Positions 3,899 through 34,916 of a stretch of 39,115 bases of DNA are shown in pieces. Below the pieces are notes generated by a model, which saw only the letters and a list, made by a program, of their open reading frames with translations, was not told the DNA's origin and ran no database searches. Within the stretch, counting starts at the first letter, position 1; each line of letters starts with the position of its first letter. Source of the stretch: Candidatus Stahliibacteriota bacterium (GTDB lineage: Bacteria > Hydrothermota > Tepidihabitantia > B3-TA06); assembly GCA_030592225.1 (NCBI GenBank), contig JAUVJT010000001.1, forward strand, positions 1 to 39,115. Reading direction: 5' to 3'. The translations under genes were made by a program, and so were the position numbers.

Positions 3899-5065
3899 AT
3901 GCGGGTTTTATACCTGACCCATAACTATCCGAGATTTACGGGCGATCCATCCGGGGCGTTCATCGAAGAACTGGTTCGAGCGCTCCCCCAGGATGAAGTG
4001 AGCGCTTTCGTTCTCTGTCCTCATGCAAAAGGTCTGGGCGAGAAGGAATCCAGGAACGGTGCAGTTATATGCAGATTCAGGTATGCGCAGGAGGATAGTG
4101 AGACCTTGGCATACGAAGGCAAGATGCTTGACGCTTTGAAGCAAGGAGGAGCGGGGTTGCGGCTTCTTGCATCATTCATCCGATCCTTTGTCCACAAGAC
4201 ACAAAAGATTATAGAGGAGGAAAAGATAGACCTGGTTCACGCCCACTGGTTATTGCCTGCAGGGGTAGCCGCAAGGATTGCCCTGCGAGGTTCAAGACTG
4301 CCGCTTGTCCTTAGCTCGCACGGCACCGACGTAAGGATGCTGAATGGATTGCCGCTTGGGGATCAACTGGCGCGTTGGGTGTTGGGAAGGGTGCGGATAT
4401 TCCTGCCCGTATCCGGCTACCTGGGGACGCAACTTGAGCAACGCTCCGGCATGAGTCTGCCAAAAGAGATACTGCCCATGCCTGCATCGGGGATGTTCGT
4501 TGCGCCGCCGAGGAGAACGCTTGCACGCAGAGTAGTGGCGGTGGGCAACCTTACCCGACAGAAGCGATTTGACGTATTAATACGAGCCTTGGGTAAACTG
4601 AACGAACGAGGGATAACGCTTGAGCTTACCCTGGTGGGCGACGGCCCGGAGAGAAATCTACTGGAGGGCTTGGTTGAGAAGGAAGGAATAGCAGGGAGGG
4701 TGAAGTTCCTCGGACGCAGACCCCATCACGAACTGCCAGGGATATTAGAAGACGCGGGGGTGATGGTACTGCCTTCGGTGGCCGAGGGGTTCGGCATGGT
4801 TCTTGCCGAAGCCCAGCTTGCCGGACTTGCGGTGATTGGCGCCGACGCCGGAGGACAGCGAGAGATGATTGAACATGGAAGGACGGGTATACTCGCCGAG
4901 CCGGACGATCCACATGCCCTGGCCTGCGCGATTGAGAACCTTTATAATAATGAAAGAGAAACACTGAAGATGGCAAGGCAAGGTCAGGAAACAGCCAAGG
5001 CACGCTTCCTTGCCGCACCCACCGCGGCCAGACTCGCCCGGATTTACAAAAGGATTCTGGCGTGA
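3899..5065 (+). CDS. GT4 (family 1) glycosyltransferase
   Basis: MRVLYLTHNYPRF N-terminus. C-terminal EGFGMVLAEAQLAGLAVIGADAGGQREMIEHGRTGIL (E-x7-E motif). I prefer the ATG at 3899, 4 nt after the upstream stop, over the track start at 3866, which overlaps the GT2 gene. Confidence 0.85.
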   Translation: MRVLYLTHNYPRFTGDPSGAFIEELVRALPQDEVSAFVLCPHAKGLGEKESRNGAVICRFRYAQEDSETLAYEGKMLDALKQGGAGLRLLASFIRSFVHKTQKIIEEEKIDLVHAHWLLPAGVAARIALRGSRLPLVLSSHGTDVRMLNGLPLGDQLARWVLGRVRIFLPVSGYLGTQLEQRSGMSLPKEILPMPASGMFVAPPRRTLARRVVAVGNLTRQKRFDVLIRALGKLNERGITLELTLVGDGPERNLLEGLVEKEGIAGRVKFLGRRPHHELPGILEDAGVMVLPSVAEGFGMVLAEAQLAGLAVIGADAGGQREMIEHGRTGILAEPDDPHALACAIENLYNNERETLKMARQGQETAKARFLAAPTAARLARIYKRILA

Positions 5066-15133: not shown

Positions 15134-15161
15134 ATTGACAAATCGTCGGTTTCGCCTACAC
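15134..15161 (+). promoter_or_regulatory. sigma70-type promoter of the phosphorelay/EF-G operon
   Basis: TTGACA (15134-15139), 16 nt spacer, TACACT (15156-15161, overlapping a TATAAT at 15161-15166). Confidence 0.4.
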
Positions 15162-15206
15162 TATAATTCTAGTAATTTTGAATATCCAGCCATTCAAGGA
15201 GGTCTG

Positions 15207-16748
15207 GTGAACGCCAAAGATAAACGCATGCAGGAACTCATCGAAGCCGCCAATCTCAAGTCGCAGTTTCTTGCCAACATGAGTCATGAGCTGCGTACTC
15301 CCTTGAACTCCATTATCGGCTTCAGCGAACTCCTCATGGACGGCCTGGTGGGTGAACTCGCCGACAAGCAGGGTCATTACATGAAAATCATCCATTCCTC
15401 CGGCATAAACCTTCTGCGGCTGGTCAATGACATCCTGGACTTTTCGAAACTCGAGGCGGGCATGCTTGAGGTTTTTAATGAACCCACATATCTAGGGGAG
15501 GTGGTCAAAGACGTTTTGCGTGCCTACGACGTGGTCTCGGAACAAAAGGATCTCGAGATAAAGGTAGACATCCCTGCGGATATGCCGCCCATGATCACTG
15601 ACAGGCGCAAACTGGCACAGATAATTGACAACCTTTTGTCCAACGCCATAAAATTCACCGAACATGGCCGGGTGGAGATTGCGGCCAGACGTGAGGGCGA
15701 GCAGTTTATACTGAAGATTGCAGATACCGGCATAGGTATCGAGTCGCAGGATATGCCTCACATCTTTGATCCGTTCCAGCAGGTTGATTCATCAACCACG
15801 AGGCGTTACGAGGGAACCGGACTCGGCCTGGCCCTGGTTAAGAAATTGCTGGAGATTCAGAATGGAGCAATAGAAGCCGAAAGCACGCCCGGGCACGGGT
15901 CCATATTCACGTTCAAACTGCCGTTCGATGAGTTCAAACCGGAAGAGGTATCTTCAAAAGAGGAGTTGGTCCATAAGCTTCCCGAACCAGGTGATCGCCC
16001 CATACTGGTAGTGGAAGACAATCCTCTGGCGGCGAACCTGATGTCTGTGTGGCTTTCGGAAGCAGGCTACAAGGTTGAGGTGGCATCCACCGGAGAGGAA
16101 GCCCTGCAAAAGGCGGTGAGCATTGATCCGGCCGTCATCACCCTGGACATTCTGCTTCCCCAGATGGATGGCTGGCGGGTGCTGCATCGCCTCAAGGAGA
16201 TACCCAAAACCAAGAATACCCCAATCATTGTGGTTTCTATAGTTGAGGACCGGAGCTTCGGTCTCTCACTGGGGGCGGTGGATTACATGATCAAGCCTGT
16301 GTCTCGCACCAATCTCATCTCCAAGATAGAAAAACTCTCCAGAACCAGAGGCAGGCCGCACCGGATACTGGTGATTGACGACAATCCGGCGGACGTAAGT
16401 TTAATAGAGGAAATACTTCGCCTGGACGGCTACGAGGTACTCAAGGCTTCAGGAGGTGTGGAAGGCTTGAAAACGGCGCGCAGCGAGAAACCCGACCTGG
16501 TGATTCTCGACCTTATGATGCCCGACCTGGACGGTTTTGACGTAATGAGACTTCTTGCCTCGGATGAGACGACGAGAGAATTGCCGGTCATCCTCTTTAC
16601 TGCCAAGGACTTAACCGAAATAGATCGCGCCAATCTGGGTGAGAATATCCACGAAATCTTCGGCAAGGCACAGCTGAATAGAGACTCGCTTCGCGCCAAG
16701 ATCGCAGATCTTCTCGGTCAGGGGAAATTAAAAGAAGGCAACCGATGA
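15207..16748 (+). CDS. Hybrid sensor histidine kinase (coiled coil - HisKA - HATPase_c - REC - REC) with no recognisable sensor or TM domain
   Basis: H-box FLANMSHELRTPLNSI, N-box DNLLSNAIKFT, G-boxes DTGIGI / GTGLGLALV. Two receiver domains follow (ILVVEDNP..TLDILLPQMDG and ILVIDDNP..ILDLMMPDLDG). I prefer the GTG at 15207, 4 nt after AAGGAGG (15196-15202). The track start at 15135 and the ATG at 15228 are alternatives. Confidence 0.9.
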   Translation: MNAKDKRMQELIEAANLKSQFLANMSHELRTPLNSIIGFSELLMDGLVGELADKQGHYMKIIHSSGINLLRLVNDILDFSKLEAGMLEVFNEPTYLGEVVKDVLRAYDVVSEQKDLEIKVDIPADMPPMITDRRKLAQIIDNLLSNAIKFTEHGRVEIAARREGEQFILKIADTGIGIESQDMPHIFDPFQQVDSSTTRRYEGTGLGLALVKKLLEIQNGAIEAESTPGHGSIFTFKLPFDEFKPEEVSSKEELVHKLPEPGDRPILVVEDNPLAANLMSVWLSEAGYKVEVASTGEEALQKAVSIDPAVITLDILLPQMDGWRVLHRLKEIPKTKNTPIIVVSIVEDRSFGLSLGAVDYMIKPVSRTNLISKIEKLSRTRGRPHRILVIDDNPADVSLIEEILRLDGYEVLKASGGVEGLKTARSEKPDLVILDLMMPDLDGFDVMRLLASDETTRELPVILFTAKDLTEIDRANLGENIHEIFGKAQLNRDSLRAKIADLLGQGKLKEGNR

Positions 16749-17125
16749 GCCGGATACTGGTGATTGAAGACAACGAAGGAAATCTGGAGCTTATAAAGGT
16801 AGTTCTGGAAATGGCGGGGCACGAAGTGATAGGTGCGGCGAGCGCTGACGTTGGATTGTTAGCGGCCAGAAAAGCCCGTCCCGATCTTATACTTATGGAT
16901 ATGCATCTGCCCGGAATGGACGGCTACGAGGCGACGCGAATAATAAAGAGAGACGAGACCTTAAAGGATATTCCGGTAATCGCGGTCACCGCTATCATCG
17001 ATCACAAGGATGAAGAAGAGGTTCGCAATTGCGGCTGCAATGGATTCATCGCCAAACCCATAGATACCCGCAAGCTGCCTGATCAGATAGCCGGTTTCAT
17101 CGAAGAAAGGACGCAGGGAGCATGA
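16745..17125 (+). CDS. Single-domain response regulator (CheY-like receiver)
   Basis: ILVIEDNEGN...LILMDMHLPGMDG...AVTA...KP receiver signature. The ATGA start overlaps the kinase stop. Confidence 0.9.
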   Translation: MSRILVIEDNEGNLELIKVVLEMAGHEVIGAASADVGLLAARKARPDLILMDMHLPGMDGYEATRIIKRDETLKDIPVIAVTAIIDHKDEEEVRNCGCNGFIAKPIDTRKLPDQIAGFIEERTQGA

Positions 17126-18738
17126 ACGAGCAAAAACCCATCCCCCTCATACTGGTAGTTGATGATGATCCGCATCTTTTGAACCTTCTGGATCTGCGCC
17201 TTGCCGAACAGAAATTCAACGTAATGCTGGCTTCCTCCGCCCGGGAAGCGCTAAAGAAAGTAGAAGACAGGCAGCCGGACATAGTTATCGCCGACATCAT
17301 GATGCCCGGTATGGACGGCTATGAGTTGTGTAAACACGTCCGGGCAAACGAAAAACTGCACAACACCCCCTTTATATTCCTGTCCGCCCTGGCCGACACC
17401 CAGGATAAGGTCAAGGGTCTGCGGCTGGGTGCGGACGATTACCTTACAAAACCGTTCGAGTTCCACGAGCTTCTGGCACGAATAGAGATTCTTCTTGACC
17501 GCTACTCGCGCTACCAGGAGACCTTTGAAACCGATACCGAGATTGCCACCCAGGGGAAGATTGAGGATCTGGGGGTGATTGATCTTTTGCAGATGCTTTC
17601 CTTCGGACAAAAAACGGGCGAGGTGCATCTTGAGTCGGATGAGGAGAAAGGCTTTCTTTACCTGATGACCGGTAAGCTCATAGCTGCAACCTACGGGAAC
17701 AAACACGGAAAAGCCGCTCTGCCCAGCCTTCTTTCATGGACCCACGGCAAATTCAGCGTCAGGCTTACCGAGAGTCTCTCCGTGATCCCCACCATCGAGC
17801 ACCAGACCGACGAGGCCATCTTTGAAGCCTTAAGGGAACTGGACGAGGTCGAACGCATCAAGCAGGAACTCGATGAAAAATCGATACCGGTGTTTTCTAC
17901 AAAACCCGCTCCCGACACAAACCTTCACAAAATTCTGCTTCAGCTCGTAGACGGCGATCGCAATCTCGGCGAAGTCTTGCTGGCAAGCCCGTTCTCCGGC
18001 TTTGAGACCGCCAAGGGAATAAAGAAGTTGATGGCCGAAGGGCATATCAGTTTGGGCTCCGTGGGAACTCCGCCTCTACCCGGGGAGGCCCCGGAAACTC
18101 CTGCTGAGACTTCGGAGCCGACCCTGTCTGAAGCGGCCCGGGAATGGGAGCCTTTGATGCCCGGGGAAGTAAAAGCGGGCGATGAGGCTGCTATAGAGAA
18201 AACCGAGGTAAGGAAAGATGAAGCCCCGAAGGAAGAGCCTTGCGCTCCAACGGAAATCGAGACCCCTGGGCCGCAACCAAAGCCTCAAGAGTTCAACCTG
18301 ATCGTTATCGGTACGGACCGCGATTCCCGCAATACCTTTATCCATGCGCTCTCCGGAGAAGAGGAAGCGGAAGATAAAAGGGAGAAGGTGCTGAATTTCG
18401 GAAGAATTATCGTTGCCGGCCACCAGCTTAATCTGTACGGACTGCCCGGAGCAAAGCGCTTCGCCCCGCTCTGGCAGACCTTTATCCACAGGGTGCACGG
18501 AATGATACTTCTGGCTGACGCCGACATTGACGAAGAGGTGGAAAACCTGCGATTTGCGTCCTCCCTCCTGGGGCCGCGTATCAGCGGACCTAAGATTGTA
18601 ATAAACACCAATCCCACCCGGCCGGATATGGATTTCGATTCCGAAACGCATGGGGTTGAGATTATTACCTGCCTGCCTGCCGATCGGCCCAAAGCGAAAG
18701 AAATCACCAACCGGCTGCTTTCACAACTTCTCCGTTAA
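17122..18738 (+). CDS. Response-regulator fusion: REC + DUF4388/PATAN-like domain + Pro/Glu-rich linker + MglA/COG2229-like small-GTPase domain with degenerate nucleotide-binding motifs
   Basis: REC: [32 protein letters not shown]4388-like: [59 protein letters not shown]-terminal: [44 protein letters not shown], which is collinear with COG2229 GTPases. The ATGA start overlaps the upstream stop. Confidence 0.75.
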
Positions 18739-18745
18739 TTGCAAA

Positions 18746-20803
18746 ATGGATCTTGCGAAATTACGTAATATAGGTGTAGCCGCACACATAGACGCGGGCA
18801 AGACCACCACCACCGAGAGGGTACTTTACTACGCCAAGCGCATACATCGTATGGGAGATGTTGACGACGGGTCGGCCACCATGGACTGGATGCAGCAGGA
18901 ACGGGAGCGCGGAATTACCATAACCTCGGCGGCGACCATTGTGGGGTGGAAGAATTACCGGATAAATATAATCGACACGCCCGGGCACGTGGATTTCACC
19001 ATCGAGGTGGAGCGTGCGCTCAAGGTGCTGGACGGCGCGGTGGTGGTGTTTTGTGCAGTGGGCGGGGTGGAGCCGCAGTCCGAGACGGTATGGCGCCAGG
19101 CGAACCGGTATCATATCCCGCGCATCGCGTTCGTGAATAAGATGGACCGGGCGGGCGCGGATTTCGAGCGGGTGGTAGACATGATGGGAGCGCGTTTTCC
19201 CCAGACCCCCATCCCCATACAGATACCCTGGGGCGCGGAACAGGATTTCGCCGGGGTGATTGACCTTGTGGGATGGCGCGCCATCCGCTGGAAGGACGAG
19301 ACGTTGGGAGCCGAGTTCGTGGCGGAGGAGATACCTGTGGAGTTAGCGCGGGAGGCACAGCGCTGGAGGGAAATTCTGGTAAACAAGGCAGGCGAGGAAA
19401 ACGACAGGATAGTGGAAGATTTCATGGCGGGAAAGCAGACAGAGGAGACGGTGCTCAGGGAGGCTCTGCGCAAGCTAACCCTTAAGAACGAGATAATTCC
19501 GGTGCTGTGCGGCTCGGCCCTCAAGAACAAGGGGGTGCAGCCGCTTCTGGATGCGGTTATAGATTACCTGCCGTCGCCGCTCGACGTACCGTCCATACAA
19601 GGGCACGATCCTGCCGACGAGGCAAAGACCATATGCAGACGTGCCGATCCCGAAGAGCCTTTCTCAGCCCTGGTCTTCAAACTGACCCATTCCCCGCACA
19701 TGGGACCCCTGGCGTTCACCCGGGTCTACTCCGGTGTGCTGGAAAGGGGAACGACCGTCAAAACTTTTCCGGGCGACAACCGCTCGCGCGCCACCAAGCT
19801 GCTCCTGGCCCACTCCAATCACTTCGAGGAAGTACCCAGGCTCCAGGCCGGGGAGATAGGGTTGATCGCCGGGCTGCGGCACGTGACCACCGGAACCACC
19901 CTGTGCGATCAGAAGCATCCTATCGTATACGAACTCATGCGCTTTCCTGAACCGGTCATCCACCAGTCAGTCGAACCGCGCACCACGGCTGATGAGGCAA
20001 AGCTGGGCAAGACTCTGGAAATTCTTCAGTTGGAAGACCCCACCTTTACGGTACGAACCGACCCGGAAACCGGTCAACTACTCATAAGCGGTATGGGTGA
20101 GCTGCACCTGGAGATTTTGGTTGACCGCTTGAAGCGCGAGTTCAGAGTACCGGTAAGGACAGGTAAACCGCAAGTTTCGTATCGAGAGACAGTTACCCGG
20201 AAAACGGAACACTCCTTTACCTTCTCCCGCTTAATTGGCCAGAAGACCCATTACGCCGGCGTAACGTTGAAGATGGAACACCACGAAGGGGGCAAAGACG
20301 TAAGGATAAAACTTACCCTCCCCATCCCCAGAGAATTCCTGGATGCCATGCGTCAGAGCCTTACCGATTCGTTCAGCGCCGGCCCCATGCTGGGCTACCC
20401 TATAACCAACGTGCGAGTGACGGTTACCGACGTTGACTACCGGGAGGAGGATGCCTCGGACATCGCGTTCAAGGCGGCGGCGTCCCATGCGTTTACCGAA
20501 GCGTATCAGAACGCCTCGCCGGCCCTGCTTGAGCCTGTAATGGACGTGGAGGTCATCACCTCCGATGAGTACATGGGAGACGTGATTGCAGACCTGGGTA
20601 CGCGCCGGGGCAAGGTAGAGCTGGTTGAGAACATACAGGAACACAAGCTCATAAAGGCCTTTGTGCCGCTTGCGGCAAGCTTCGGGTATGCCACCACTTT
20701 AAGATCGTTGACCCAGGGACGCGCCAGCTTTGCCATGCACTTTTCCCACTACGCCGTACTGCCCGAAGAGCTGCGCAAAAAGCTGTTCGATTACATGGTG
20801 TGA
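18746..20803 (+). CDS. fusA: Elongation factor G family GTPase (divergent paralogue, not in a str-operon context)
   Basis: G1 [18 protein letters not shown]2 [10 protein letters not shown]3 DTPGHVDF, G4 NKMDR, G5 GSALKNKGV. All five EF-G domains are collinear. The ATG at 18746 lies 8 nt after the upstream stop; the track start at 18650 overlaps the previous gene. Confidence 0.9.
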
Positions 20804-20813
20804 TTAATATCAG

Positions 20814-21089
20814 CTAGGTTAAACTCTCTCCCCAATCAAACCGCAGTTCAATGCCCTGGGCATTCAGTTTTTCCTTAAGGTCTTTGTACCGCTTAAAGAA
20901 TTCACACGTCTTGGAAATCTTCCACTCGCAATAAGGGGTGCATTTTGATACGTCCTTATAGCCAACGTGGCAGTGCTTTTCGAAAAGAAAGTCACGCAGT
21001 GCATTAACCGCATCGTCAAACTGCTTCTTGGCCGGAGCGAACTTGACGATTTCCTGAATTAAACTTTCTACTCTTTCATCACCTGACAT
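20814..21089 (-). CDS. Small Cys-rich hypothetical protein (91 aa)
   Basis: ATG 7 nt after the tmk stop, with GGAG embedded (TGAGGAGTAAATG). C-H-x9-C-x3-C-x7-C spacing (KHCHVGYKDVSKCTPYCEWKISKTCEF). The region is AT-richer. I recognise no family. Confidence 0.5.
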   Translation of the reverse strand: MSGDERVESLIQEIVKFAPAKKQFDDAVNALRDFLFEKHCHVGYKDVSKCTPYCEWKISKTCEFFKRYKDLKEKLNAQGIELRFDWGESLT

Positions 21090-21096: not shown

Positions 21097-21726
21097 TCAC
21101 TTTACTCTGGAATTGACAAGCTGAATAACCATATTAAGTATATGCCCAAAAACAATCTCAATGGACCGAGTGCCATCTATAGCCTCAACGCTGGGAACTT
21201 TTAAACCAAGGAAGGCCTCTCTTACCATCTCAAGGTATCTTTCATTCTCAAAAAGTGTCGTTTGATTGTCGCGCCCGTTTTTTATTCTCCAAAGCCCTAT
21301 CCTGGGTGGCAAATCAAGGATAATAGTAATATCCGGTTCAGGCGCGAATTTCCTGTTCTGGTGAAGTATCTCATCCACCGTCTTACCTATTCCTCGCAAT
21401 ACTCCCTGGTATGCGGCTGTAGAGTAAAAATACCTGTCCATGATAACTATGGATTTTTCCTTCAGAAGAGGCTTTATTTTGTTGGTAACGTGATCCCTGC
21501 GATCTTTGACGAAAAGTTCTAACTCATCAGGAGGACTCAAGTTTCTGTGCTCATGCACAAGCTTCTTAATCTGCTTTCCATACTTTCTATTGGTCGGTTC
21601 CTTCAAGATTACTACTGGGTAATTCTTGGTTTCAAGAACCGCTTTTAGGAGAGCCGCTTGAGTGGTTTTGCCAGCCCCATCGATTCCTTCAAGAGCGAGC
21701 AATATTCCCTTCTTAAGTGTTTTCAT
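21097..21726 (-). CDS. tmk: dTMP (thymidylate) kinase
   Basis: P-loop LALEGIDGAGKTTQ, followed by EPT...G and a DRY-type motif (MDRYFYSTAAYQG) and the LID region. Confidence 0.9.
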   Translation of the reverse strand: MKTLKKGILLALEGIDGAGKTTQAALLKAVLETKNYPVVILKEPTNRKYGKQIKKLVHEHRNLSPPDELELFVKDRRDHVTNKIKPLLKEKSIVIMDRYFYSTAAYQGVLRGIGKTVDEILHQNRKFAPEPDITIILDLPPRIGLWRIKNGRDNQTTLFENERYLEMVREAFLGLKVPSVEAIDGTRSIEIVFGHILNMVIQLVNSRVK

Positions 21727-21917: not shown

Positions 21918-23918
21918 TTAGTAAGTAACGCTCAGCCCGCCATAGAATCGTCTTGGCGCGGTGGGATAGTCGAAGGTGCTGTAACCGCCGAAGTGTGCCG
22001 GGGTCTGGTCGTTGAGGATGTTACGGACGCCGGCTTCGATGGTGAGAATACTAAACAGCTTCTGGGATAGGGATGCGTCGAGCTTGAGGGACGGGTCAAT
22101 GGTCTTCTCCAGAACCCCGATATCGGGTGCGGTTGACCAGTCGGCGTAGTAGTTGACGCGCTCGCCTGTCCAGGCAAGGTTGGCGGCTATTTTGCCGCCC
22201 TTCCAGGCACGCACGGCAATATTGCCCTTGATGCTGAGCGACGGGATGAACGCGGCCTGACGGGTGACCTCTGCGGTTCGCGTCTGTCCTGTCATCCAGT
22301 CGGAATAGGTAACTATGGTGCGGGTTTCCGCTGCGTCGTTGTAGGCGACGCCCAGCGATCCGCTGAACAGGCCGTCGGCAATCCGCCAGTTTGTTGAAAA
22401 CTCCGCGCCCAGGACGCTAACCTGATCCACGTTTGACGGTCTCCAGAATCCTGCCGAATCGGACGACCACGAAATCATGTCCTTGATATCTTTCCATGAC
22501 CCAACCAGGGAGAACTTGAGAAAATCCAGAGGTCTTACGCCCACAGAAAGCGCTGCACTCTGTCCCTTCTCCGCAACCAGGGTTGAGTCGCCTCCTGAGA
22601 AGAAATCCGCGGGCCAGTAAAGGTCGTTGAACGAAGGCGCACGGAACGCCTGACCGTAGGCCGCTGAAACGTAGAGCATCCGTGGAACAACCTCGACGCT
22701 CAGACCGGCTTCAGGTGAAATGAAGGTTCCGTACTGAGCGGAGTTATCGAGTCTTACCGCCGCGCTCGGGGTAAAGATGCCCGCCTCAACCAATGCCTCA
22801 ACCCAGGCGCCTATCTGCATATCGGAGGCTTCCCAGGTGGTGTCCTTGAGGGTTACGTCAGTGGCGCTGTCTGCGGCAACCTGCGCGCCTTCAAACGTCT
22901 CCTGGACAATGGACGCTCCACCGGCAAGGGTGAGGAATTCGGCAATCGTTCCGGTTATCTGGAGATCGCCGCCCAGACGGGTGTCGCTGTAGTTATTGGT
23001 CGCAAGCGCGGTGTAGGTCATGAAGTCGGGATTGAAACCCTGGTATTTACAGTTGTAGGTGAAATCCTGCTGTACCGCGTAGAGAGCCAGCGAGGTGGTG
23101 AGGTTCTGTAATGGAGAGAAGGACGTTTTGAGGCTTGCAGTGAGCAGATTGTCGACCTGATTGTCGTAGAGCGATGTAACCAGCGAGTCGCCGAACGTTG
23201 GCATAACGAAGGCGGTGTCCGAAGCGTCAGGCGCAGGTCCGGGTACGCCCAGTTCGCGGGAGGTATAGCCTGCATCAACTTCGAGATGGAGCGCCTCGAT
23301 GGGGTCAACCCACAAGGCTGCATTGCCGTTGTAGCGCGATACGTCGTCGTTGTGACGGAACCCGGGGTTGGTAAGATAGGAACCGCTGGCACGCGCACCG
23401 AATATCCCGAAGCTGCGTGCGGCGCGAGCGCCCACGTTCATGCCCATTTGATCGGTGGCTCCGAAAGTTGCTGATAACCCATCTTTCTTCGATGGGATAA
23501 CGTTGAGTACCCCTCCGATGGCCGATGAGCCGTAAAGCGCGGATAGAGGTCCCTTTACGACCTCGACCCGGTCGCCCGGCATCATGGGGATAAGAGAGAG
23601 GTCTATCACCCCGTCGCGCCGGGTATTCATTGGGATACCATTTGAGAGGACGAGTACGCGGGATGCGGCAACCCCTCCCAGGAACGAGAAGGCCATGTGC
23701 CCTTCATAACCGTATGAACGCACGTCAGATGCAACGCTGCGCCCCAGGACGTCGGCCAGGTCGGTGACCTCTTCAGATTCCAGCACCTCGACCGGCCACG
23801 GGGATTTCTCGGCCGGAAGCGAGAGTCTTGTTGCGGTAATCACAACCGGCGGCAGCTCAAACACCGTATCGAGCGTCACTTGAGAAAAAAGCATGGATAT
23901 AAGCACGAGCTTTATCAC
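21918..23918 (-). CDS. btuB: TonB-dependent outer-membrane receptor, probable cobalamin/corrinoid transporter
   Basis: Signal peptide, plug region (VVITATRLSLPAEKSPWPVEVL...), GGVLNVI, a long beta-barrel and a C-terminal aromatic residue (..GGLSVTY). GTG start at 23918 with GGAG 7 nt upstream. A cobalamin riboswitch lies directly upstream. Confidence 0.85.
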   Translation of the reverse strand: MIKLVLISMLFSQVTLDTVFELPPVVITATRLSLPAEKSPWPVEVLESEEVTDLADVLGRSVASDVRSYGYEGHMAFSFLGGVAASRVLVLSNGIPMNTRRDGVIDLSLIPMMPGDRVEVVKGPLSALYGSSAIGGVLNVIPSKKDGLSATFGATDQMGMNVGARAARSFGIFGARASGSYLTNPGFRHNDDVSRYNGNAALWVDPIEALHLEVDAGYTSRELGVPGPAPDASDTAFVMPTFGDSLVTSLYDNQVDNLLTASLKTSFSPLQNLTTSLALYAVQQDFTYNCKYQGFNPDFMTYTALATNNYSDTRLGGDLQITGTIAEFLTLAGGASIVQETFEGAQVAADSATDVTLKDTTWEASDMQIGAWVEALVEAGIFTPSAAVRLDNSAQYGTFISPEAGLSVEVVPRMLYVSAAYGQAFRAPSFNDLYWPADFFSGGDSTLVAEKGQSAALSVGVRPLDFLKFSLVGSWKDIKDMISWSSDSAGFWRPSNVDQVSVLGAEFSTNWRIADGLFSGSLGVAYNDAAETRTIVTYSDWMTGQTRTAEVTRQAAFIPSLSIKGNIAVRAWKGGKIAANLAWTGERVNYYADWSTAPDIGVLEKTIDPSLKLDASLSQKLFSILTIEAGVRNILNDQTPAHFGGYSTFDYPTAPRRFYGGLSVTY

Positions 23919-23984
23919 GTAAATCTCCAGGTTGTGGGCGTAGTAGATACCCGCACCTGCCCTGCCCCGGAGCAGACACGGTAA

Positions 23985-24190
23985 GGTAGTACGACGAACA
24001 GGTTTCCTGGCTTACGGATCATCCTGTTTTCCCAACCTTCCCACCTGCTTCGCAGGTAGTGGTTTAGGACTCGCTTATGCGAGTCGAACGCGTCTTTGCT
24101 GCTCGCAAATCCGCGGGAAAAACAGTCCCCGATTACAGTGGCGGGACCGCGGCCGATTCTCACGGCCTTCCCTGACTTCCGCCGTCCAAA
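23985..24190 (-). promoter_or_regulatory. Cobalamin (B12) riboswitch
   Basis: The minus-strand RNA reads GGAAGUCAGGGAAGGCCGUGAGAAUCGGCCGCGGUCCCGCCACUGUAAUCGGGGAC ... GAUGAUCCGUAAGCCAGGAAACCUG. It contains the AGGGAA / GUGAGAAUC / GCGGUCCCGCCACUGU (B12 box) core and the 3' GCCAGGAAACCUG segment. Downstream CUCCGGG can pair with the SD region CCUGGAG. Boundaries are approximate. Confidence 0.8.
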
Positions 24191-24200
24191 TTGTTATACA

Positions 24201-24229
24201 ATAATAAGGGCGAGGGCAGGTGTTGTCAA
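24201..24229 (-). promoter_or_regulatory. sigma70-type promoter driving the riboswitch and receptor
   Basis: On the minus strand, TTGACA (24229-24224), 17 nt spacer, TATTAT (24206-24201). Confidence 0.55.
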
Positions 24230-24403: not shown

Positions 24404-25573
24404 ATGCGGACGTATGAGCGGACACACCCGTGGCTGACATTCACTCTTGATCTGCGTAAGGCTGACCATCGGTTATGGTTGGCTCTTGGGGAAGCTCAGG
24501 CCAAATGCGAATATATCGCAGGGGTGCCTTTGAGACCTGCAACAGCCACAAACCTTCACATGATTTATTTAGCCAAAGGGGCGCTGGCAACCACAGCAAT
24601 TGAGGGTAATACCCTTTCTGAAGAAGAAGCTCTCAAGCTTGTGCAGGGGCGTTCGGATCTTCCTCCCTCGAAGAAGTATCTTGCTCAGGAAGTGGAAAAC
24701 ATAGTTAAGGCCTACACTCAGATATTCAACAATCTCTTTGTTAAGGAAGAATCCCATGCTTTTCATCTGGAAAAGATAAAAGAGTTTAACCGCCTCGCCC
24801 TGAAGAACCTAGAGTTGCCGGAAGAAGTTAAGCCTGGGGAAATAAGAAATTACTCTGTCGGGATTGCCCAATACAGGGGAGCACCGCCCGAGGATTGCGA
24901 GTATCTTTTGAAGCGTTTGTGCGATTGGTTAAACAAAGAGAAAAATAGAGTTCCTAAGGGTCAGGAAATCGCTTTCGGCCTGATTCGAGCGATCATCGCC
25001 CATCTTTATCTGGCCTGGATACACCCCTTTGGCGACGGAAATGGTAGAACCGCCAGGTTGATGGAGTTCCAAATTCTTCTGGCTGCTGGCGCTCCGACAT
25101 TAGCCGTCCATTTACTTAGCAATCACTATAATCTCACCCGGCAGGAATACTACAGGCAACTGGATCGTGCCTCAAAATCAGGTGGGGATATTTTTCCATT
25201 CCTCCAATATGCTCTGCAAGGTTTTTTAGACGGTCTGGATGAACAGATGCAGGTGATTCAAATACAAGTTCTAAATGTATCCTGGAAAGACTACATCTAC
25301 GAAGCTTTTAAGGATCAACACAGTGAATCGGCTAGAAGAAGACGTAACCTGGCACTGGATTTGTCTTACAGGGCTGAACCAGTGCCGATATCGGGAATCA
25401 GACATATCAGCCCCGGTATAGCCGAGGCCTATGCAGGAAAGACGCACAAGACAATTACGCGTGATCTTAATTCGCTTGCAGAAATGGGTCTGGTAGAGCA
25501 GACACCGGAAGGGATTCGTGCTAAACGTGAAAAGATGCTGGCTTTTTTACCCAAACGAAGAGCAGACATCTAA
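24404..25573 (+). CDS. Fic family protein (class II, internally autoinhibited) with a C-terminal winged-helix domain
   Basis: Fic motif IHPFGDGNGRTARL (HxFx[DE]GNGRxxR). N-terminal inhibitory motif TTAIEG ([ST]xxxE[GN]). The C-terminal KTITRDLNSLAEMGLVEQ is wHTH-like. RBS AGGAGG at 24392-24397. Confidence 0.9.
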   Translation: MRTYERTHPWLTFTLDLRKADHRLWLALGEAQAKCEYIAGVPLRPATATNLHMIYLAKGALATTAIEGNTLSEEEALKLVQGRSDLPPSKKYLAQEVENIVKAYTQIFNNLFVKEESHAFHLEKIKEFNRLALKNLELPEEVKPGEIRNYSVGIAQYRGAPPEDCEYLLKRLCDWLNKEKNRVPKGQEIAFGLIRAIIAHLYLAWIHPFGDGNGRTARLMEFQILLAAGAPTLAVHLLSNHYNLTRQEYYRQLDRASKSGGDIFPFLQYALQGFLDGLDEQMQVIQIQVLNVSWKDYIYEAFKDQHSESARRRRNLALDLSYRAEPVPISGIRHISPGIAEAYAGKTHKTITRDLNSLAEMGLVEQTPEGIRAKREKMLAFLPKRRADI

Positions 25574-27226: not shown

Positions 27227-28477
27227 GTGGAAAAACTAGGCATCTTGATATTCTTGCCGGTGTTTCTGTGGGCGCTTGAAACGGTAAACCTACTCAAGGA
27301 TCACAGTTTCGAGAAAGACAGCGAGGTGTGGGTTACTTCAGCTGGTAGTAAGTGGGCAGGTATAGGAGAGGATTCAGCAATCGTAAATAGACATGATTCC
27401 CAAAGTTCATATGATGGATCGTTTTCCGCTTCCGGAGATACGAGAATAACCCCAGCTTGGGTTGGAATGGGAGGATTCGATTCTGCAATGGTCGTTCAGA
27501 GTTTTGCGAATAAGAAGATAGAGGATTTGGATAGTCTGATTTGGAGTCAGAAAGTGGTGTGGAAAAATGATAGTCGTGCGCTTACAGGATTATTCGTGAT
27601 TGGTCTTTTTCTGGATGCTTCTTCTGAAAATTGGTTCCAGTGGGGATATTCATTTGAAAGCCCTGATTTTGATTTTGGCATCATAGATCGATGGCAGAGG
27701 GTGTCTTCCGATATGCCTGATGATACGTTGTGGAAGGAATACGCTCGTGACCTTCAAAAAGATCTGGCTGCTAGTCACGATTTTCAGATCCCCGTCGATT
27801 CCTTTTTGTTGCTTAATTGGGGATTCTGGGGATCTGCCACTTTCTGGTATGGCCAGAAGGTTTACTGGGATGATATACGCTTGATGGGTTATGCGGATTA
27901 CGACGTAGGGGTGAAGGAAATACTTTCCGGTGACTCGCTGGAGGCTGGCACGCCTTACCAGCCTGTGGCACGTATTAAGAACTTCGGTAGTGAGAACGCG
28001 GACAGCTTTTTGGTCATTGCCGAGATTAAGGACGGAGCATCTCTCATCTACGTAGACACCCTGCCGTGGTCTCTTGACTCCGACACCGAGGATACCGTCA
28101 CCTTCGCCGACTTCGACCCGCCCTTCACCGGGCCGTACAACCTGACTGTTAGAACCTTTGCCGAACCCGACGAGTGCGACGAAGACGACGAACTATCAAA
28201 GGAAATCGGGCACTCGTCTGTATCTGAAGTCACTCTACCCGACGGCCTCTCGCTTGAGGTGCGCTCCATTGCGTCACCCTTACAGGTCTCCTACTCCCTG
28301 CCCTACGGCGAATCCGGCACTCTGACCCTCTATGATGCCACGGGCCGCCGCGTGGAGCGGATGGAGGTCAGTCATTCCGGTAACACGGAGTTTGTCGATT
28401 TAGCATCAGGCACGTACTTCATCAAACTTGAGGCTGACGGTATATCCGTTGTAGAGAAAGCGGTTGTACTGCGGTAA
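27227..28477 (+). CDS. Secreted T9SS cargo protein: CBM4_9-like jelly-roll + CARDB-like domain + T9SS type A C-terminal sorting domain
   Basis: Signal peptide MEKLGILIFLPVFLWA. NLLKDHSFEKDSEVW...VYWDDIRL brackets a CBM4/9-like module. YDVGVKEI..PVARIKNFGSENADSF is CARDB-like. The C-terminal ..TLTLYDATGRRVERMEV..LASGTYFIKLEADGISVVEKAVVLR is a textbook Por/T9SS CTD. Confidence 0.85.
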   Translation: MEKLGILIFLPVFLWALETVNLLKDHSFEKDSEVWVTSAGSKWAGIGEDSAIVNRHDSQSSYDGSFSASGDTRITPAWVGMGGFDSAMVVQSFANKKIEDLDSLIWSQKVVWKNDSRALTGLFVIGLFLDASSENWFQWGYSFESPDFDFGIIDRWQRVSSDMPDDTLWKEYARDLQKDLAASHDFQIPVDSFLLLNWGFWGSATFWYGQKVYWDDIRLMGYADYDVGVKEILSGDSLEAGTPYQPVARIKNFGSENADSFLVIAEIKDGASLIYVDTLPWSLDSDTEDTVTFADFDPPFTGPYNLTVRTFAEPDECDEDDELSKEIGHSSVSEVTLPDGLSLEVRSIASPLQVSYSLPYGESGTLTLYDATGRRVERMEVSHSGNTEFVDLASGTYFIKLEADGISVVEKAVVLR

Positions 28478-29711: not shown

Positions 29712-31490
29712 ATGGCTTTCTTATTTCTGCTACTGCTTCAATCAAGCTTTGCACCCTGCTCGTCACTCTTGCTCGGCGGCGACTACCGGGCCGGGGCAGC
29801 CGATGACTCACTGCTCTACGTCGCAGACGGCAGGGGCATAAGCGCATTTGAGCAAAGGGCATTCAAACGCCGCGGCGACATTCTGCTGTCGGGCAAAACC
29901 TCTCATGCCGCCCTGTATGGTTCAAGCATCTTCGTAGGTGGAACCCGGGGACTGGCAAGGTTCGATGTCGGCATCCTGTCGCAGCCCGGGCACGTATATC
30001 AGCAGAACACCGAGGTGGAATGGCTGCACCGGGAGCCTGTCACTGCCCTGGAGGTATCCGGGAACAGGCTGTGGTTTGTAGACGCTTCCGGCCGGGTGTA
30101 CGGCATGAACCTGAGAGAAGGCGAAGACGCCTCTCCTTTAGAATTCGCCAGGCTTCCCGTTCCCGCGGTAAGAATCGTGCAGGCTGAGGCGCTCCTCTAC
30201 CTTGCTGCGGACACCGCAGGGGTTTTCGTGCTGGACCTCGATGCCGGGGAATCGCAGGCCAGGAAGCTGACCGTCGAGGATAATCCTCCGGTTGTGGATA
30301 TCCTGGTAGCAGGCGATAAGCTGTACCTGGCGTGCGCCGAGGAAGGATTATGGGCAACTCAGCCCAAACGCAACTCGCTTAAGGTTATCTCGCGCGTTGA
30401 TGCGGCCGGCGAGGTGATGAGCCTGGAGCTTTTCGGCGACAGAATCGCCGCAGCCTCGGGAAGCAAAGATTTCAGTCTCTTTTCAACAGATAGCCCGGAG
30501 GGCCTCGCCCAAATACAGGTGGAGCGCCTGCCCGGAACCGGGCTTGAACTCATAAAGGCTGGAACGAATTGTTTCGTGCTCACGGAAACAGGCATAGGGC
30601 GCATGGATATCTCCACCGCTCCCCTGGCAGGGCACGGGGTGTTCTTCAGGGGGAACGGTTCTGGCCACGATATCCTGACCCGCGGTGAAATCGCCGTTCT
30701 CGCGGCAGGCAAAGCCGGCGTGCAAATCATAGATTTGCAGGATACCCTTAGCTTGCTCGGCACCTACTCTGATGCAGCAGACTGCTGGAAGGCCTATCTT
30801 TTCGGGTCCCAGGTTTATGCCATGACTAAGGCCAACATAATGCAGGTTTCGGAGATAAAAAATCCCGCCAGGCCCGAGAAACGCACCTTTCTGAAGTTCT
30901 CCTCGGTGACTTCAGGGGTGGATACCGAGGGCGAAATGCTCCTTGCCGCCGAGCATGAGCAAGGCGTGGGGGTGTGGTGGCGCTGTCCTTGCGGCCCGTT
31001 CAAAGAACAGGGACGCTGGAGTCCCGGCGGCGAGGCGCTCGACGTTAAAATCAGAGAACAACTGGCTTTCGTCTCGACCGATATGGCAGCCCTGCACGTG
31101 ATTGACTGGTCGGACAGCGCCAACCCTGAAGAGCTTACCAGTCTGGCGCTGAACCGGGACTATGAGAGATTGTATCTGGACGAGGATCTTCTCTTCGGCC
31201 TGGATTCCTCAGGGGCGTTGGTATTGATTGACGTATCCCGCCCTACACGACCCAGAGAAGTGGCCGTGCTGGAACTCCCGGGCGCTCCCGCAGCGCTCGC
31301 ACGTCACCAGGACCGCTTGTTTATTGCCGCTCGGGACGAAGGGGTGCACGTAGTTGACATTTCCAAGCCCTCCTCGCCCGAATTGGTAGAGACCATCGAC
31401 GTGGAACCGGCCATGGGGGTGGCTATTTCCGGCAACAGACTGCTGGTCTGCACCCCCTATTCGGTAGAAGAGTATAAAATTCAACCTTAA
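29712..31490 (+). CDS. LVIVD-repeat beta-propeller protein (paralogue 1)
   Basis: About 13-14 repeats of roughly 40 aa with the LVIVD signature, e.g. GVFVLDLDAGE, AGVQIIDLQD, ALHVIDWSDSANPEEL, GALVLIDVSRPTRPREV, EGVHVVDISKPSSPELV. The N-terminus is hydrophobic (probable signal peptide, no basic n-region). Confidence 0.8.
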   Translation: MAFLFLLLLQSSFAPCSSLLLGGDYRAGAADDSLLYVADGRGISAFEQRAFKRRGDILLSGKTSHAALYGSSIFVGGTRGLARFDVGILSQPGHVYQQNTEVEWLHREPVTALEVSGNRLWFVDASGRVYGMNLREGEDASPLEFARLPVPAVRIVQAEALLYLAADTAGVFVLDLDAGESQARKLTVEDNPPVVDILVAGDKLYLACAEEGLWATQPKRNSLKVISRVDAAGEVMSLELFGDRIAAASGSKDFSLFSTDSPEGLAQIQVERLPGTGLELIKAGTNCFVLTETGIGRMDISTAPLAGHGVFFRGNGSGHDILTRGEIAVLAAGKAGVQIIDLQDTLSLLGTYSDAADCWKAYLFGSQVYAMTKANIMQVSEIKNPARPEKRTFLKFSSVTSGVDTEGEMLLAAEHEQGVGVWWRCPCGPFKEQGRWSPGGEALDVKIREQLAFVSTDMAALHVIDWSDSANPEELTSLALNRDYERLYLDEDLLFGLDSSGALVLIDVSRPTRPREVAVLELPGAPAALARHQDRLFIAARDEGVHVVDISKPSSPELVETIDVEPAMGVAISGNRLLVCTPYSVEEYKIQP

Positions 31491-31503
31491 AGGAGAGTGA
31501 AGG

Positions 31504-34915: not shown

Positions 34916-34916
34916 G

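Follow-up and report, generated by a model that had tools for sequence, protein, structure and literature searches.

A conserved WOR-3 gene cluster that suggests a link between phospho-signalling and a specialised EF-G

The DNA analysed is a 39,115-nt stretch from Candidatus Stahliibacteriota bacterium (GCA_030592225.1, contig JAUVJT010000001.1, positions 1-39,115), called the window hereafter. A four-gene cluster occupies 15207-20803 of its + strand and encodes a hybrid kinase, a single receiver (REC), a multidomain regulator that we call gene 3, and a five-domain EF-G. The genes and the signals around them are as follows.

15135 to 15162, + strand: sigma-70-like match TTGACA-16-TACACT (10/12 consensus positions), a candidate promoter only
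15196 to 15202, + strand: ribosome-binding site AAGGAGG, read directly, 4 nt 5′ of the kinase GTG
15207 to 16748, + strand: cytoplasmic hybrid histidine kinase, HisKA (H-box SHELRTPLN), HATPase_c, REC, REC; orthologues have the same domains
16745 to 17125, + strand: single-domain CheY-like receiver, in ATGA overlap with the kinase stop
17122 to 18738, + strand: gene 3, 538 aa, REC-PATAN/DUF4388-helical module-linker-Arf-like pseudoGTPase, in ATGA overlap with the preceding gene
18739 to 18745, + strand: 7-nt spacer TTGCAAA from the gene 3 stop to the EF-G ATG, no Shine-Dalgarno sequence
18746 to 20803, + strand: EF-G-family GTPase, 685 aa, five domains, intact G1-G4 motifs, member of the two-component-linked clade
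20850 to 20864, + strand: terminator-like hairpin AATGCC-CTG-GGCATT followed by a T-rich run, a consensus match only

Pfam gave all four genes the domain content that a sequence-only reading of this DNA had assigned to them, and the ATGA overlaps at 16745-16748 and 17122-17125 can be read directly in the sequence. The gap before the EF-G ATG at 18746, put at 8 nt in that reading, is actually 7 nt long and does lack a Shine-Dalgarno sequence. Also, a single upstream promoter had been proposed. A consensus match is indeed present in the 194-nt intergenic region between argS and the kinase, but 7 promoter-like sites were found in the region against 4.2 ± 2.5 expected from shuffles, and because such sites are no commoner than in shuffles the match is kept as a candidate. 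It may be noted that the consensus used for scoring was that of sigma-70 and that the type used by WOR-3 may differ. No terminator-like site was found on the + strand within 15207-20803, as had been stated, and the hairpin listed above lies 47 nt past the EF-G stop, within a convergent 91-aa ORF. The whole 39-kb window was confirmed to carry no ribosomal-protein gene; the missing rpsL-rpsG-fusA-tuf context is nevertheless a weak argument, because the canonical WOR-3 EF-G genes that we inspected also lie outside it.

The kinase has HisKA at aa 18-85, HATPase_c at aa 132-241 and two Response_reg stretches (Pfam). Its start is most likely the GTG at 15207 and not the open-frame start at 15135, as the orthologues are 512-517 aa long and AAGGAGG precedes this GTG. 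Just 17 residues then stand before HisKA, therefore the kinase has no input domain. The label sensor-less holds in this way for the main clade of related loci but not for a distant clade, where the cluster contains an inserted gene for an extra GAF-HisKA-HATPase kinase. Gene 2 consists of one REC (Pfam) and is 66-83% identical across related loci. As Pfam found no HPt domain in any of the four proteins, the cluster is not the classical phosphorelay it had been taken for; it comprises a kinase and several receivers and not a His-Asp-His-Asp relay. Gene 3 is divided as follows.

17149 to 17487, + strand: receiver, aa 10-122 (Pfam PF00072, E = 1e-30)
17551 to 17850, + strand: PATAN/DUF4388, aa 144-243 (Pfam PF14332, E = 8e-17, 61.8 bits against a cut-off of 25)
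17884 to 18057, + strand: small strand-plus-three-helix module, aa 255-312 (AF2 secondary structure, pLDDT 84-91)
18061 to 18273, + strand: Pro/Glu/Ala-rich low-complexity linker, aa 314-384 (pLDDT < 50, disordered)
18283 to 18735, + strand: Arf/Arl-like Ras-superfamily pseudoGTPase domain, aa 388-538 (profile, fold and motifs)

In an alignment of 20 orthologues D15, D16, D58, S88 and K110 of the receiver are invariant, so that the phospho-acceptor Asp58 and Lys110 are kept in all of them. The helical module is possibly winged-helix-like, a tentative reading of the predicted structure; Pfam winged-helix matches are only below threshold, and Pfam found no DNA-binding domain in gene 3. The linker is almost absent in some orthologues and reaches about 150 residues in others. 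The C-terminal domain is a pseudoGTPase with a Ras-like fold, and profile, fold and motif evidence agree on the label that it had been given. There is a weak Pfam Arf match at aa 389-471 (Arf matches occur in 13 of 15 members of the domain), a profile search against PDB retrieved Arl8 (E = 1.5e-8), and the AF2 model (pLDDT 87.6) aligns by Foldseek to Arl8b, Rab1 and RhebL1 with TM 0.65-0.74. The P-loop Lys and Ser/Thr, the catalytic Gln and NKxD are all lost: GxxxxGK[ST] reads GTDRDSRN, xPGQ reads LPGA and NKxD reads NTNP. The nearest active relatives are GTPases of about 160-190 aa that match PF03029, Arf and Ras and keep all motifs. The pseudoGTPase domain family itself is restricted to proteins of the gene 3 type; among 1.84 billion proteins it has about 8-10 representatives.

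The order kinase, REC, REC-PATAN-pseudoGTPase and EF-G was found in loci L001-L005, in 10/10 GTDB species-representative loci matched by a gene-3-specific profile (all WOR-3/'Stahlbacteria' MAGs, L010 among those confirmed) and in 9/9 JGI metagenome contigs that reach past gene 3. Among the examined loci reaching past gene 3 the sole exception was one 4-kb contig. In L026, the most divergent relative, no EF-G start is visible: gene 3 gives way to non-coding sequence of 129 nt or more that contains a hairpin, and the link may thus not hold everywhere. In 15 related loci 5-7 nt separate the gene 3 stop from the EF-G ATG; in the distant clade the two genes overlap (-1 and -20 nt). The linkage spans identities down to 32-42% for gene 3 and 55-58% for EF-G. 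Upstream flanks vary, with argS in the window and a GAF/PAS kinase, TrmO or desulfoferrodoxin elsewhere; downstream, synteny with a TonB receptor is partly kept among closer relatives, which makes the argument from different flanks slightly weaker. The four-gene arrangement is far beyond chance, and these results support the four genes being a conserved, tightly coupled unit. Co-occurrence in relatives, which the sequence-only reading had left to be checked, is thus kept across deep divergence, and the possibility that no relative shares the two-component-EF-G linkage falls away.

The linked EF-G has the Pfam domains GTP_EFTU, EF-G_D2, EFG_III, EFG_IV and EFG_C and scores 868 bits against TIGR00484 (EF-G; cut-off 659). 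Its G1-G4 motifs are invariant across the linked clade. Domain IV is the most diverged, with 38% identity to canonical EF-Gs as against 62-63% for domains I and III, and the two loops at its tip are rewritten (E. coli numbering).

20231 to 20260, + strand: domain IV loop I, canonical Q(S/T)GGRGQYG; Q507 to L, G510 to Q, G512 to T
20429 to 20461, + strand: domain IV loop II, canonical DGSYHEVDSSE; H583 to R, S587 to A

Both loops are rewritten in every member of the linked clade (Q507 to L/I/M, G510 to Q/T, H583 to R/K, the K belonging to the distant clade), and the clade signature positions of loop II are H566R and S570A. By comparison, at least 90% of 121 EF-G sequences grouped as canonical carry H583, and loop I is the canonical GG-x-G throughout the canonical EF-Gs compared. 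Asp586 and Ser588 of loop II are kept in the linked EF-Gs, so some tip function may persist. Q507 and H583 of the E. coli protein touch the anticodon loop, and both H583R and Q507H turned up as dominant-lethal changes. Translocation is about 2-fold slower with H583R, and -1 frameshifting rises 3.7-7.2-fold in those tip mutants, H583R among them, that were tested and are translationally active (PMC7749637). H583K is toxic, and recycling also needs loop II (PMC4666400). With GTPase motifs intact and both tip loops changed clade-wide, the linked EF-G looks specialised, in agreement with what had been claimed. Judged from its residues, it would keep what ribosome binding and GTP hydrolysis need, with the tip residues that hold the codon-anticodon duplex as translocation proceeds replaced. 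Its codon-usage bias was uninformative.

Identity among the linked EF-Gs is 72-100% and then drops to 56% or less (53-56% to canonical EF-Gs). In a neighbour-joining tree they are monophyletic, the distant-clade EF-G included, within the WOR-3 EF-G radiation, a position that would also be compatible with a vertically inherited EF-G of one WOR-3 sublineage. Other tip-altered WOR-3 EF-G variants are stand-alone genes. The linked EF-G is most likely a paralogue beside a separate canonical EF-G in the genome; this we infer, because look-ups of the cluster-bearing genomes tied no second, canonical EF-G to any system-bearing assembly.

Bacteroides EF-G2 serves as an alternative EF-G beside the main factor, and the linked EF-G would likewise be of an alternative type. 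PMC3150367 describes EFG II/EF-G2 as alternative EF-Gs beside the main factor, with altered loop I charge or GTPase properties; unlike these, the linked EF-G has intact GTPase motifs. Using Thermus thermophilus EF-G-2 (PDB 1WDT) and Bacteroides EF-G2 (NCBIfam NF058620) as comparators, membership in EFG II/EF-G2 was rejected: the linked EF-G scores 305 bits with 1WDT but about 720 with canonical EF-G, and it falls short of the cut-offs of NF009377 (386, cut-off 890) and NF058620 (424, cut-off 1000). A closer likeness in sequence type, canonical EFG I-like, is to extra EFG I-type paralogues such as Pseudomonas aeruginosa EF-G1A/EF-G1B (PMC3832671; subfamily framework PMC3150367). The linked EF-G also lies away from ribosomal genes, and a functional division between copies is plausible, but it differs from that pair in having both tip loops rewritten and in being the last cistron of a two-component operon, an arrangement that we did not find in the accessible part of PMC3150367 or in the literature searched. 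The positions changed are those of the E. coli tip mutants (Q507H/D/L, H583R/K, S587, S588; PMC7749637, PMC4666400), here in a natural protein. Whereas the laboratory mutants are dominant-lethal or toxic, the present changes are fixed and conserved in the whole clade with Asp586 and Ser588 kept, and this implies that selection has favoured a different activity, not that the protein is defective.

The signalling half has its own parallels. Gene 3 resembles cyanobacterial PatA/PixG in combining PATAN (PF14332) and a receiver without a DNA-binding domain, which suggests output through protein contacts. In PatA the PATAN domain is N-terminal (the Pfam entry is named PatA_N), whereas in gene 3 the order is reversed with the receiver N-terminal; gene 3 also adds the helical module and the pseudoGTPase, and its partner gene is an EF-G and not a pilus or divisome gene. 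MglA/MglB/RomR and the Streptomyces conservons CvnA-D are bacterial Ras-like GTPase signalling modules that similarly combine an xPGQ-type Ras-superfamily domain with kinase and receiver proteins. Unlike in MglA-type modules, the gene 3 domain is motif-less and fused to a regulator, and no Roadblock/MglB partner was found in the cluster in the window or related loci. Control of a translocase by a kinase is known for eEF2, the target of eEF2 kinase, and for EF-G of Bacillus subtilis, which PrkC phosphorylates; the concept of a signalling pathway aimed at the translocase is the same. But those cases involve Ser/Thr phosphorylation of a housekeeping factor itself. In the present cluster a His-Asp system has a genetic link, by way of the adaptor-like gene 3, to an EF-G that is altered and dedicated, and phosphorylation of EF-G itself is not implied.

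The signalling proteins all lack output domains for DNA binding or enzymatic activity, and EF-G is the only non-signalling gene in the cluster. Our preferred reading, held tentatively at a probability of roughly 0.45, is that of a conserved WOR-3 operon that joins a cytoplasmic phospho-signalling module to a specialised EF-G as its dedicated partner. The literature searched held no description of such a signalling-EF-G module.

It is unlikely that the EF-G paralogue is merely co-expressed, as part of the same stress or growth-state regulon, and works on ribosomes independently while gene 3, like cyanobacterial PATAN regulators, targets for example a motility or polarity machine. Polarity control, as by MglA/MglB/RomR, is the best-known role of bacterial Ras-like GTPase modules, and REC-PATAN proteins occur elsewhere without an EF-G neighbour (a Nitrospira one has only its N-terminal half in common with gene 3, and EF-G is not adjacent). 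The targets reported for PATAN regulators, the type IV pilus motor in Synechocystis (bioRxiv 10.1101/2021.06.11.447907) and, for PatA, the divisome in Anabaena (PMC7380572), would also fit. Yet related loci share no motility or polarity gene within the cluster, the pseudoGTPase-bearing gene 3 is found essentially only beside the linked EF-G clade, and the 5-7-nt or overlapping junction suggests translational coupling with matched output of gene 3 and EF-G.

We consider it still more doubtful that the EF-G is the sole housekeeping copy, with fusA placed downstream of a two-component cluster by chance and the arrangement kept by descent, so that at most the operon promoter sets bulk EF-G supply. 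The outcome of the second-copy look-ups is in line with this, as are the general position of WOR-3 fusA outside the str operon, the branching of the linked clade like a major WOR-3 lineage, the TIGR00484 score above cut-off and the intact GTPase motifs. Against it stand the replacement of Q507 and H583 in all clade members, when the equivalent E. coli mutants are dominant-lethal or toxic, and the persistence of the linkage through upstream flank changes, the extra kinase insertion and deep divergence. A start without Shine-Dalgarno sequence 5-7 nt past a signalling gene would also be odd for a highly abundant protein. Furthermore, conservation of the EF-G does not exceed that of Tmk or the outer-membrane receptor: identities between the window and L011 are 79.6% for EF-G, 79% for Tmk and 81% for the TonB receptor, and with L008 the receptor (87%) exceeds EF-G (81%), which is atypical for a sole housekeeping EF-G.

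Reversed flow, whereby the EF-G paralogue and the pseudoGTPase protein report ribosome or GTP status to the sensor-less kinase and the output leaves by the single-domain receiver to targets outside the cluster, would suit a main-clade kinase that needs protein input for want of an input domain, a free-standing CheY-like receiver as typical diffusible output and an EF-G whose GTPase centre, apparently active, would respond to ribosome state, but we judge it improbable: a small-molecule input of the conventional kind is suggested by the in-cluster GAF sensor kinase of the distant clade, input to the kinase could come from the two receivers that it carries, and a translational GTPase acting as kinase ligand is without precedent to our knowledge.

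Under the preferred reading of a signalling module with a dedicated EF-G partner, the hybrid kinase would autophosphorylate and then hand the phosphate on to three kinds of acceptor: the receivers within the kinase itself, the single-domain receiver, acting as a sink or connector, and the receiver of gene 3. In gene 3, phosphorylation would change the contacts that the PATAN and pseudoGTPase domains make with a partner; this may be the EF-G whose gene starts 7 nt further on, or that EF-G in complex with the ribosome. An action of phosphorylation on EF-G, or on where EF-G is located, we infer from gene association and conserved adjacency. The cell could so turn on or off, or relocate, an alternative EF-G that would act on ribosomes unlike the housekeeping translocase, whether as a slow or frameshift-prone translocase, as a brake competing for the GTPase centre or as a splitting/recycling factor. 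In this way the cluster hints at an as yet undescribed path by which phospho-signalling could reach the ribosome.

The four genes of the cluster, identified from the translation of the window and from domain searches, lie on the same strand:

15207-16748, plus strand: gene 1, hybrid histidine kinase with HisKA, HATPase_c and two receiver domains
16745-17125, plus strand: gene 2, single receiver
17122-18738, plus strand: gene 3, 538 aa, with receiver, PATAN/DUF4388 and pseudoGTPase domains
18746-20803, plus strand: gene 4, five-domain EF-G, 685 aa

Gene 1 most likely starts at GTG 15207, 4 nt past an AAGGAGG; the frame is open from 15135, and the later start is favoured because the orthologues are 512-517 aa long. 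With this start only 17 residues stand ahead of HisKA, and gene 1 is therefore without a sensor domain, as a sequence-only reading of this DNA had described it; Pfam and the H-box SHELRTPLN identify it as a HisKA/HATPase kinase with the conserved His. That reading was also right about two ATGA overlaps at the gene junctions and about the lack of internal terminators (no terminator-like plus-strand site lies inside the cluster, and one lies past the EF-G stop), but it had counted 8 nt ahead of the EF-G ATG where there are 7. For the single promoter that it had named, a TTGACA-16-TACACT match is present at 15135-15162, but such matches do not exceed those in shuffled sequence of the region, which leaves it a candidate only. 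Rfam and tRNA scans gave no match inside the operon. The cluster is flanked upstream by mfd, a CN-hydrolase gene and argS, and downstream, on the opposite strand, by a 91-aa ORF, tmk and a TonB-dependent receptor gene. By effective number of codons the EF-G (46.7) does not stand out from its neighbours (45-57). The contig is placed in the candidate phylum WOR-3 by how its homologues are labelled and by a T9SS sorting domain found at another place in the window.

Some other features of the window may be recorded here. A full-length cobalamin riboswitch (RF00174, 72 bits) at 23980-24209 on the minus strand is directly upstream of the TonB-dependent receptor gene (21918-23918, minus), whose product is for that reason probably a BtuB-like uptake protein made under B12 control; several related loci also carry this receptor gene, in synteny, downstream of the EF-G. 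Low G+C was seen for tmk (21097-21726, minus; 0.42) and for a Fic-domain gene (24404-25573, plus; 0.47), against 0.52-0.58 for the neighbours. Among them, the stretches 27227-28477, 29712-33267 and 33551-36278 carry genes for a protein that ends in a T9SS sorting domain, for a tandem pair of LVIVD-repeat proteins and for a tandem pair of radical-SAM proteins, and several ORFs near them have no Pfam match.

The four-gene linkage, which had been read from this one locus, is strongly conserved. Full-length homologues of gene 3 are few (only about twenty clusters at 90% identity), and three of these clusters, at 53-56% identity, show the identical four-gene order behind differing upstream neighbours (a GAF/PAS kinase, TrmO, and desulfoferrodoxin/ferritin genes). 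A profile of gene 3 from PATAN to the C-terminus was used to scan one genome each of 185,579 species and returned 10 loci, all in WOR-3 or 'Candidatus Stahlbacteria' MAGs. The order kinase, single receiver, gene 3, EF-G was present in 10 of 10, as far as each contig reaches (the contig of locus L010 stops 70 nt into the EF-G). In JGI metagenomes the scan found 10 further loci, with the EF-G next in all 9 that reach past gene 3. In 15 loci 5-7 nt separate the gene 3 stop from the EF-G ATG; the most distant clade (L016, L017 and L036), with gene 3 32-42% and the EF-G 55-58% identical, has the two genes overlapping (-1 and -20 nt). This clade carries an additional GAF-HisKA-HATPase kinase between the single receiver and gene 3. 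Extra sensor kinases of the GAF (or GAF/PAS)-HisKA-HATPase kind were located at 8103-9608 of L016, 441-1937 of L036 and 610-2586 of L026, so that the cluster of the distant clade has an explicit input domain, which the main clade does not.

The most divergent relative, L026 (a 4-kb Logan contig from SRR20069395), shows no EF-G start in at least 129 nt after gene 3; this stretch (4016-4144) is non-coding sequence with a hairpin, gaggtc-ttcg-gacctc, 3′ of gene 3. The EF-G link may thus be absent or looser in L026, the contig being short. A Nitrospira REC-PATAN protein that matches only the N-terminal half of gene 3 has no EF-G neighbour, and on this ground the link appears to be a property of the gene 3 form that bears the C-terminal domain. 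An apparent disruption of the EF-G in L008 (11991-12090 of MAG095, JAYELY01), where the gene seems broken in two and its annotation is that of a partial GTP-binding protein, was rejected as an argument for dispensability since the break is a 100-N scaffold gap and not a deletion. It may be noted that one EF-G of the linked clade, that is, of the EF-Gs encoded beside two-component genes (TKJ42752.1, in the P0123 cluster, from a 99.6-kb contig), was deposited as 'candidate division TA06 bacterium B3_TA06', which means either that the system extends past WOR-3-labelled organisms or that the MAG is labelled differently in NCBI.

Gene 3, which joins this EF-G to the signalling genes, is built as follows:

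aa 10-122: receiver (PF00072, 106.6 bits)
aa 144-243: PATAN/DUF4388 (PF14332, 61.8 bits, cut-off 25)
aa 255-312: small module of a strand plus three helices
aa 314-384: disordered Pro/Glu-rich linker
aa 388-538: C-terminal domain with a weak Arf match

Residues D15, D16, D58, S88 and K110 of its receiver are invariant in 20 orthologues, and the receivers of the kinase and of the single-receiver protein were seen to keep their acceptor sites on inspection of the window translation. PATAN and receiver stand in one protein, as in the PatA type, but PatA and PixG have PATAN N-terminal and the receiver C-terminal, whereas in gene 3 the receiver (aa 10-122) is ahead of PATAN (aa 144-243). For the helical module we do not claim a winged-helix, its Pfam matches being sub-threshold only. 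As receiver matches swamped the fold search with the full-length model, the C-terminal domain was used alone. A profile of 15 orthologues matched Arl8 in the PDB (E = 1.5e-8), and Pfam Arf was found in 13 of the 15. The AF2 model of the domain (pLDDT 87.6) gave Foldseek TM values of 0.65-0.74 to Arl8b, Rab1, RhebL1 and an Asgard Arf, so that by profile and model it is predicted to be a Ras-like alpha/beta fold.

The nucleotide-binding motifs of this fold are lost. In the HMMER alignment GTDRDSRN stands opposite GLQYSGKT of Arl8 in place of the P-loop GxxxxGK[ST], the Lys being replaced by Arg (invariant across orthologues) and the Mg-binding Thr by Asn (nearly invariant). In switch II, YGLPGAKRF stands opposite DIGGQPRF of Arl8 with the catalytic Gln changed to Ala, and INT(N/D)PT replaces NKxD. 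The P-loop expression is absent from the gene 3 domain and present in the nearest relatives; of the closest active ones, P0386 has GAPGQKRF and most others NKQD. A profile search of 1.84 billion representatives found the domain in about 8-10 proteins, all of them members or fragments of the gene 3 family. Below these come, for the most part, GTPases of roughly 160-190 aa that match PF03029, Arf and Ras; nearly all those inspected keep GxxxxGK[ST] and most NKQD, with an xPGQ-type switch II in P0386 and P0393. The name pseudoGTPase, which had been given to the domain before any search, is thus well founded at the level of sequence and predicted fold, with a Ras-like fold from which the P-loop Lys/Thr, the switch II Gln and NKxD have all gone.

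The product of gene 4 has the EF-G architecture G-II-III-IV-V (Pfam GTP_EFTU, EF-G_D2, EFG_III, EFG_IV, EFG_C), can be aligned over its whole length with the EF-Gs of E. coli and T. thermophilus (about 720 bits to their solved structures) and passes the EF-G equivalog model TIGR00484 (868.4 bits, cut-off 659.4). It does not group with EFG II/EF-G2, the structure 1WDT scoring 305 bits against about 720 for EFG I structures and the EF-G2 models NF009377 and NF058620 falling far below their cut-offs. Nor is it a Tet ribosomal protection protein (NF012153 354.5 bits, cut-off 775; other Tet models lower), and it does not appear to be closely related to the recycling-specialised EF-G2 of mitochondria, as the RRF2mt structure 7L20 (509 bits) scores below canonical EF-G. 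Motifs G1-G4, including NKMD, are intact and invariant in the linked clade, and the catalytic His of DTPGH is retained. The homologues fall into tiers: the linked clade at 72-100% identity, its members all from clusters wherever the context was seen, and then, after a sharp fall, the canonical EF-Gs of WOR-3 and many other phyla at 56% or less. In a neighbour-joining tree the linked EF-Gs, including P0134 of the distant clade, form one long-stemmed clade within the WOR-3 EF-G radiation.

What sets this clade apart is the tip of domain IV, where neither loop has kept its canonical form in any of the 13 clade members or in the distant clade. The canonical tip (E. coli numbering) reads Q507-x-G-G-x-G-Q-Y in loop I, more fully Q(S/T)GG(R/K)G(Q/H)(Y/F)G, and H583-x-x-D-S-S in loop II, within DG(S/A)(Y/F)HEVDSS; neither loop of the EF-G in the window conforms, and its loop II contains YREEDAS. 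In loop I Q507 is changed to L/I/M, G510 to Q/T/N and G512 to T/A; in loop II the replacements are R for H583, or K in the distant clade, and A for S587, with Asp586 and Ser588 retained. Of 121 sequences grouped as canonical at least 90% have His583, and all the canonical ones listed in the alignment have a loop I of the GG-x-G form. Domain IV has also diverged more than any other domain: its identity to canonical EF-Gs is 38%, where domains I and III have 62-63%, and within the clade it is 68%. As the tRNA translocates, its anticodon loop is bound by Q507, H583 and D586 of canonical EF-G (PMC7749637). In E. coli, Q507H and H583R act as dominant-lethal mutations; translocation-linked rates fall by half with H583R, and -1 frameshifting rises 3.7-7.2-fold in the translationally active tip mutants tested, H583R included (PMC7749637). 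With H583K, which is toxic, the mRNA no longer moves, and ribosome recycling too requires loop II (PMC4666400). Intact GTPase motifs beside a tip rewritten at such positions suggest that the linked EF-G should retain GTP hydrolysis and docking at the ribosome's GTPase centre, and should handle the codon-anticodon duplex unlike the housekeeping factor. Other WOR-3 EF-Gs with altered tips were also seen (P0336/P0337/P0339 at L021-L023, P0326 at L024, and P0329/P0331, e.g. IIDNKLHQAEI / DGAYNKENPSDF), and repeated remodelling of the tip seems to be a theme in this phylum. For P0336 and P0326, the two groups whose context was fetched, a link to two-component genes was rejected, the genes standing alone with no signalling neighbours.

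The sequence-only reading had taken the EF-G for a paralogue since it lies outside the rpsL-rpsG-fusA-tuf (str) context. The observation holds, as no ribosomal-protein gene was found in the 39 kb window, but it is not diagnostic in WOR-3 because no ribosomal gene adjoins any of the canonical-type EF-Gs of this phylum whose context was fetched (L006/L007, L018, L019, L020); these have gyrB as a neighbour, lie in the vicinity of mfd or stand alone. The EF-G may instead be the only one of its sublineage, with a housekeeping role, which would be remarkable in its own way. A second EF-G in a cluster-bearing genome was not found among the canonical-type WOR-3 EF-Gs looked up (P0140, P0241, P0144, P0320 and further sequence clusters), none of which could be tied to a system-bearing assembly; the accessions of cluster members match no such assembly, their ranges differing from those of MBN2379452 (JAFGSK01) and MBD3285825 (WJJO01), and the supplements of the WOR-3 genome paper hold no EF-G or KO data. 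Against a sole EF-G stand three points: canonical sequences keep the very tip residues replaced here (His583 and the GG-x-G of loop I), the gene is the last cistron of a signalling operon and has no Shine-Dalgarno sequence, and it is no better conserved than Tmk or an outer-membrane receptor, which is unlike a sole EF-G. Between the window and L011 the EF-G is 79.6% identical, Tmk 79% and the TonB receptor 81%; for L008 the receptor is 87% and the EF-G 81% identical. On these grounds we regard the EF-G as probably a paralogue.

As to the signalling logic, the phosphorelay of the sequence-only reading did not hold: no HPt match was found in any of the four proteins (Pfam, E <= 0.01) or among the called genes of the related loci. 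Pfam also gave no DNA-binding or enzymatic output domain in the cluster, whose sole non-signalling gene is the altered EF-G. In the mechanism we propose, the kinase would phosphorylate its own receivers, the single receiver and gene 3; phosphorylated gene 3 would then bind, release or position the EF-G, or EF-G-bound ribosomes, through its PATAN and pseudoGTPase domains, the outcome being a gated alternative activity on the ribosome. By analogy with the E. coli tip mutants, which are dominant-negative, an unregulated EF-G of this kind could be harmful, and this would rationalise its tight stoichiometric coupling to a regulator and to signalling control. The extra GAF kinase of the distant clade suggests a small-molecule cue as the input. 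A rival account is that the EF-G and the signalling genes are co-expressed only; the close gene spacing and the near-exclusive occurrence of the pseudoGTPase-bearing gene 3 beside this EF-G clade speak against it. The flow of information may also be reversed, running from the EF-G to the signalling proteins. Direct gating of a dedicated, tip-altered EF-G on the ribosome by a His-Asp pathway, through a receiver-PATAN-pseudoGTPase adaptor and as a new two-component output, is put forward tentatively, with a probability of about 0.3.

Each part is of a known kind: the EF-G is an EFG I-like paralogue, the kinase is of the hybrid type, and gene 3 is a PATAN regulator with a Ras-like fold at its C-terminus. 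Their combination had not been recognised as a described system, and we likewise found none in the literature on PATAN/DUF4388, on EF-G paralogues with response regulators, or on WOR-3/Stahlbacteria. In searches of the open-access literature of PubMed Central and bioRxiv we met no two-component cassette with a translational GTPase as dedicated partner, an absence that is no proof, and neither the tip-rewritten EF-G clade nor a regulator-fused pseudoGTPase unique to it was found described there. Known outputs of two-component systems are transcription factors, second-messenger enzymes and motor or polarity proteins, and no system is known to us in which that place is taken by a translational GTPase. 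Paralogues of EF-G occur widely, their purpose and switching being mostly obscure. Here, a natural EF-G with an intact GTPase engine has its decoding-site tip rewritten at positions where mutations in E. coli slow translocation and loosen the frame, and it is tied to a signalling cassette and a unique pseudoGTPase adaptor. As all the parts are soluble proteins, work with heterologous ribosomes could test them in spite of the uncultured hosts. Should the link prove direct, the cluster would offer a path, open to experiment, by which an environmental or metabolic signal reaches translocation, recycling or the upkeep of the frame, and a natural system for probing the role of the domain IV tip; phosphorylation would then switch the mode of translocation, the availability of ribosomes or the fidelity of the reading frame.
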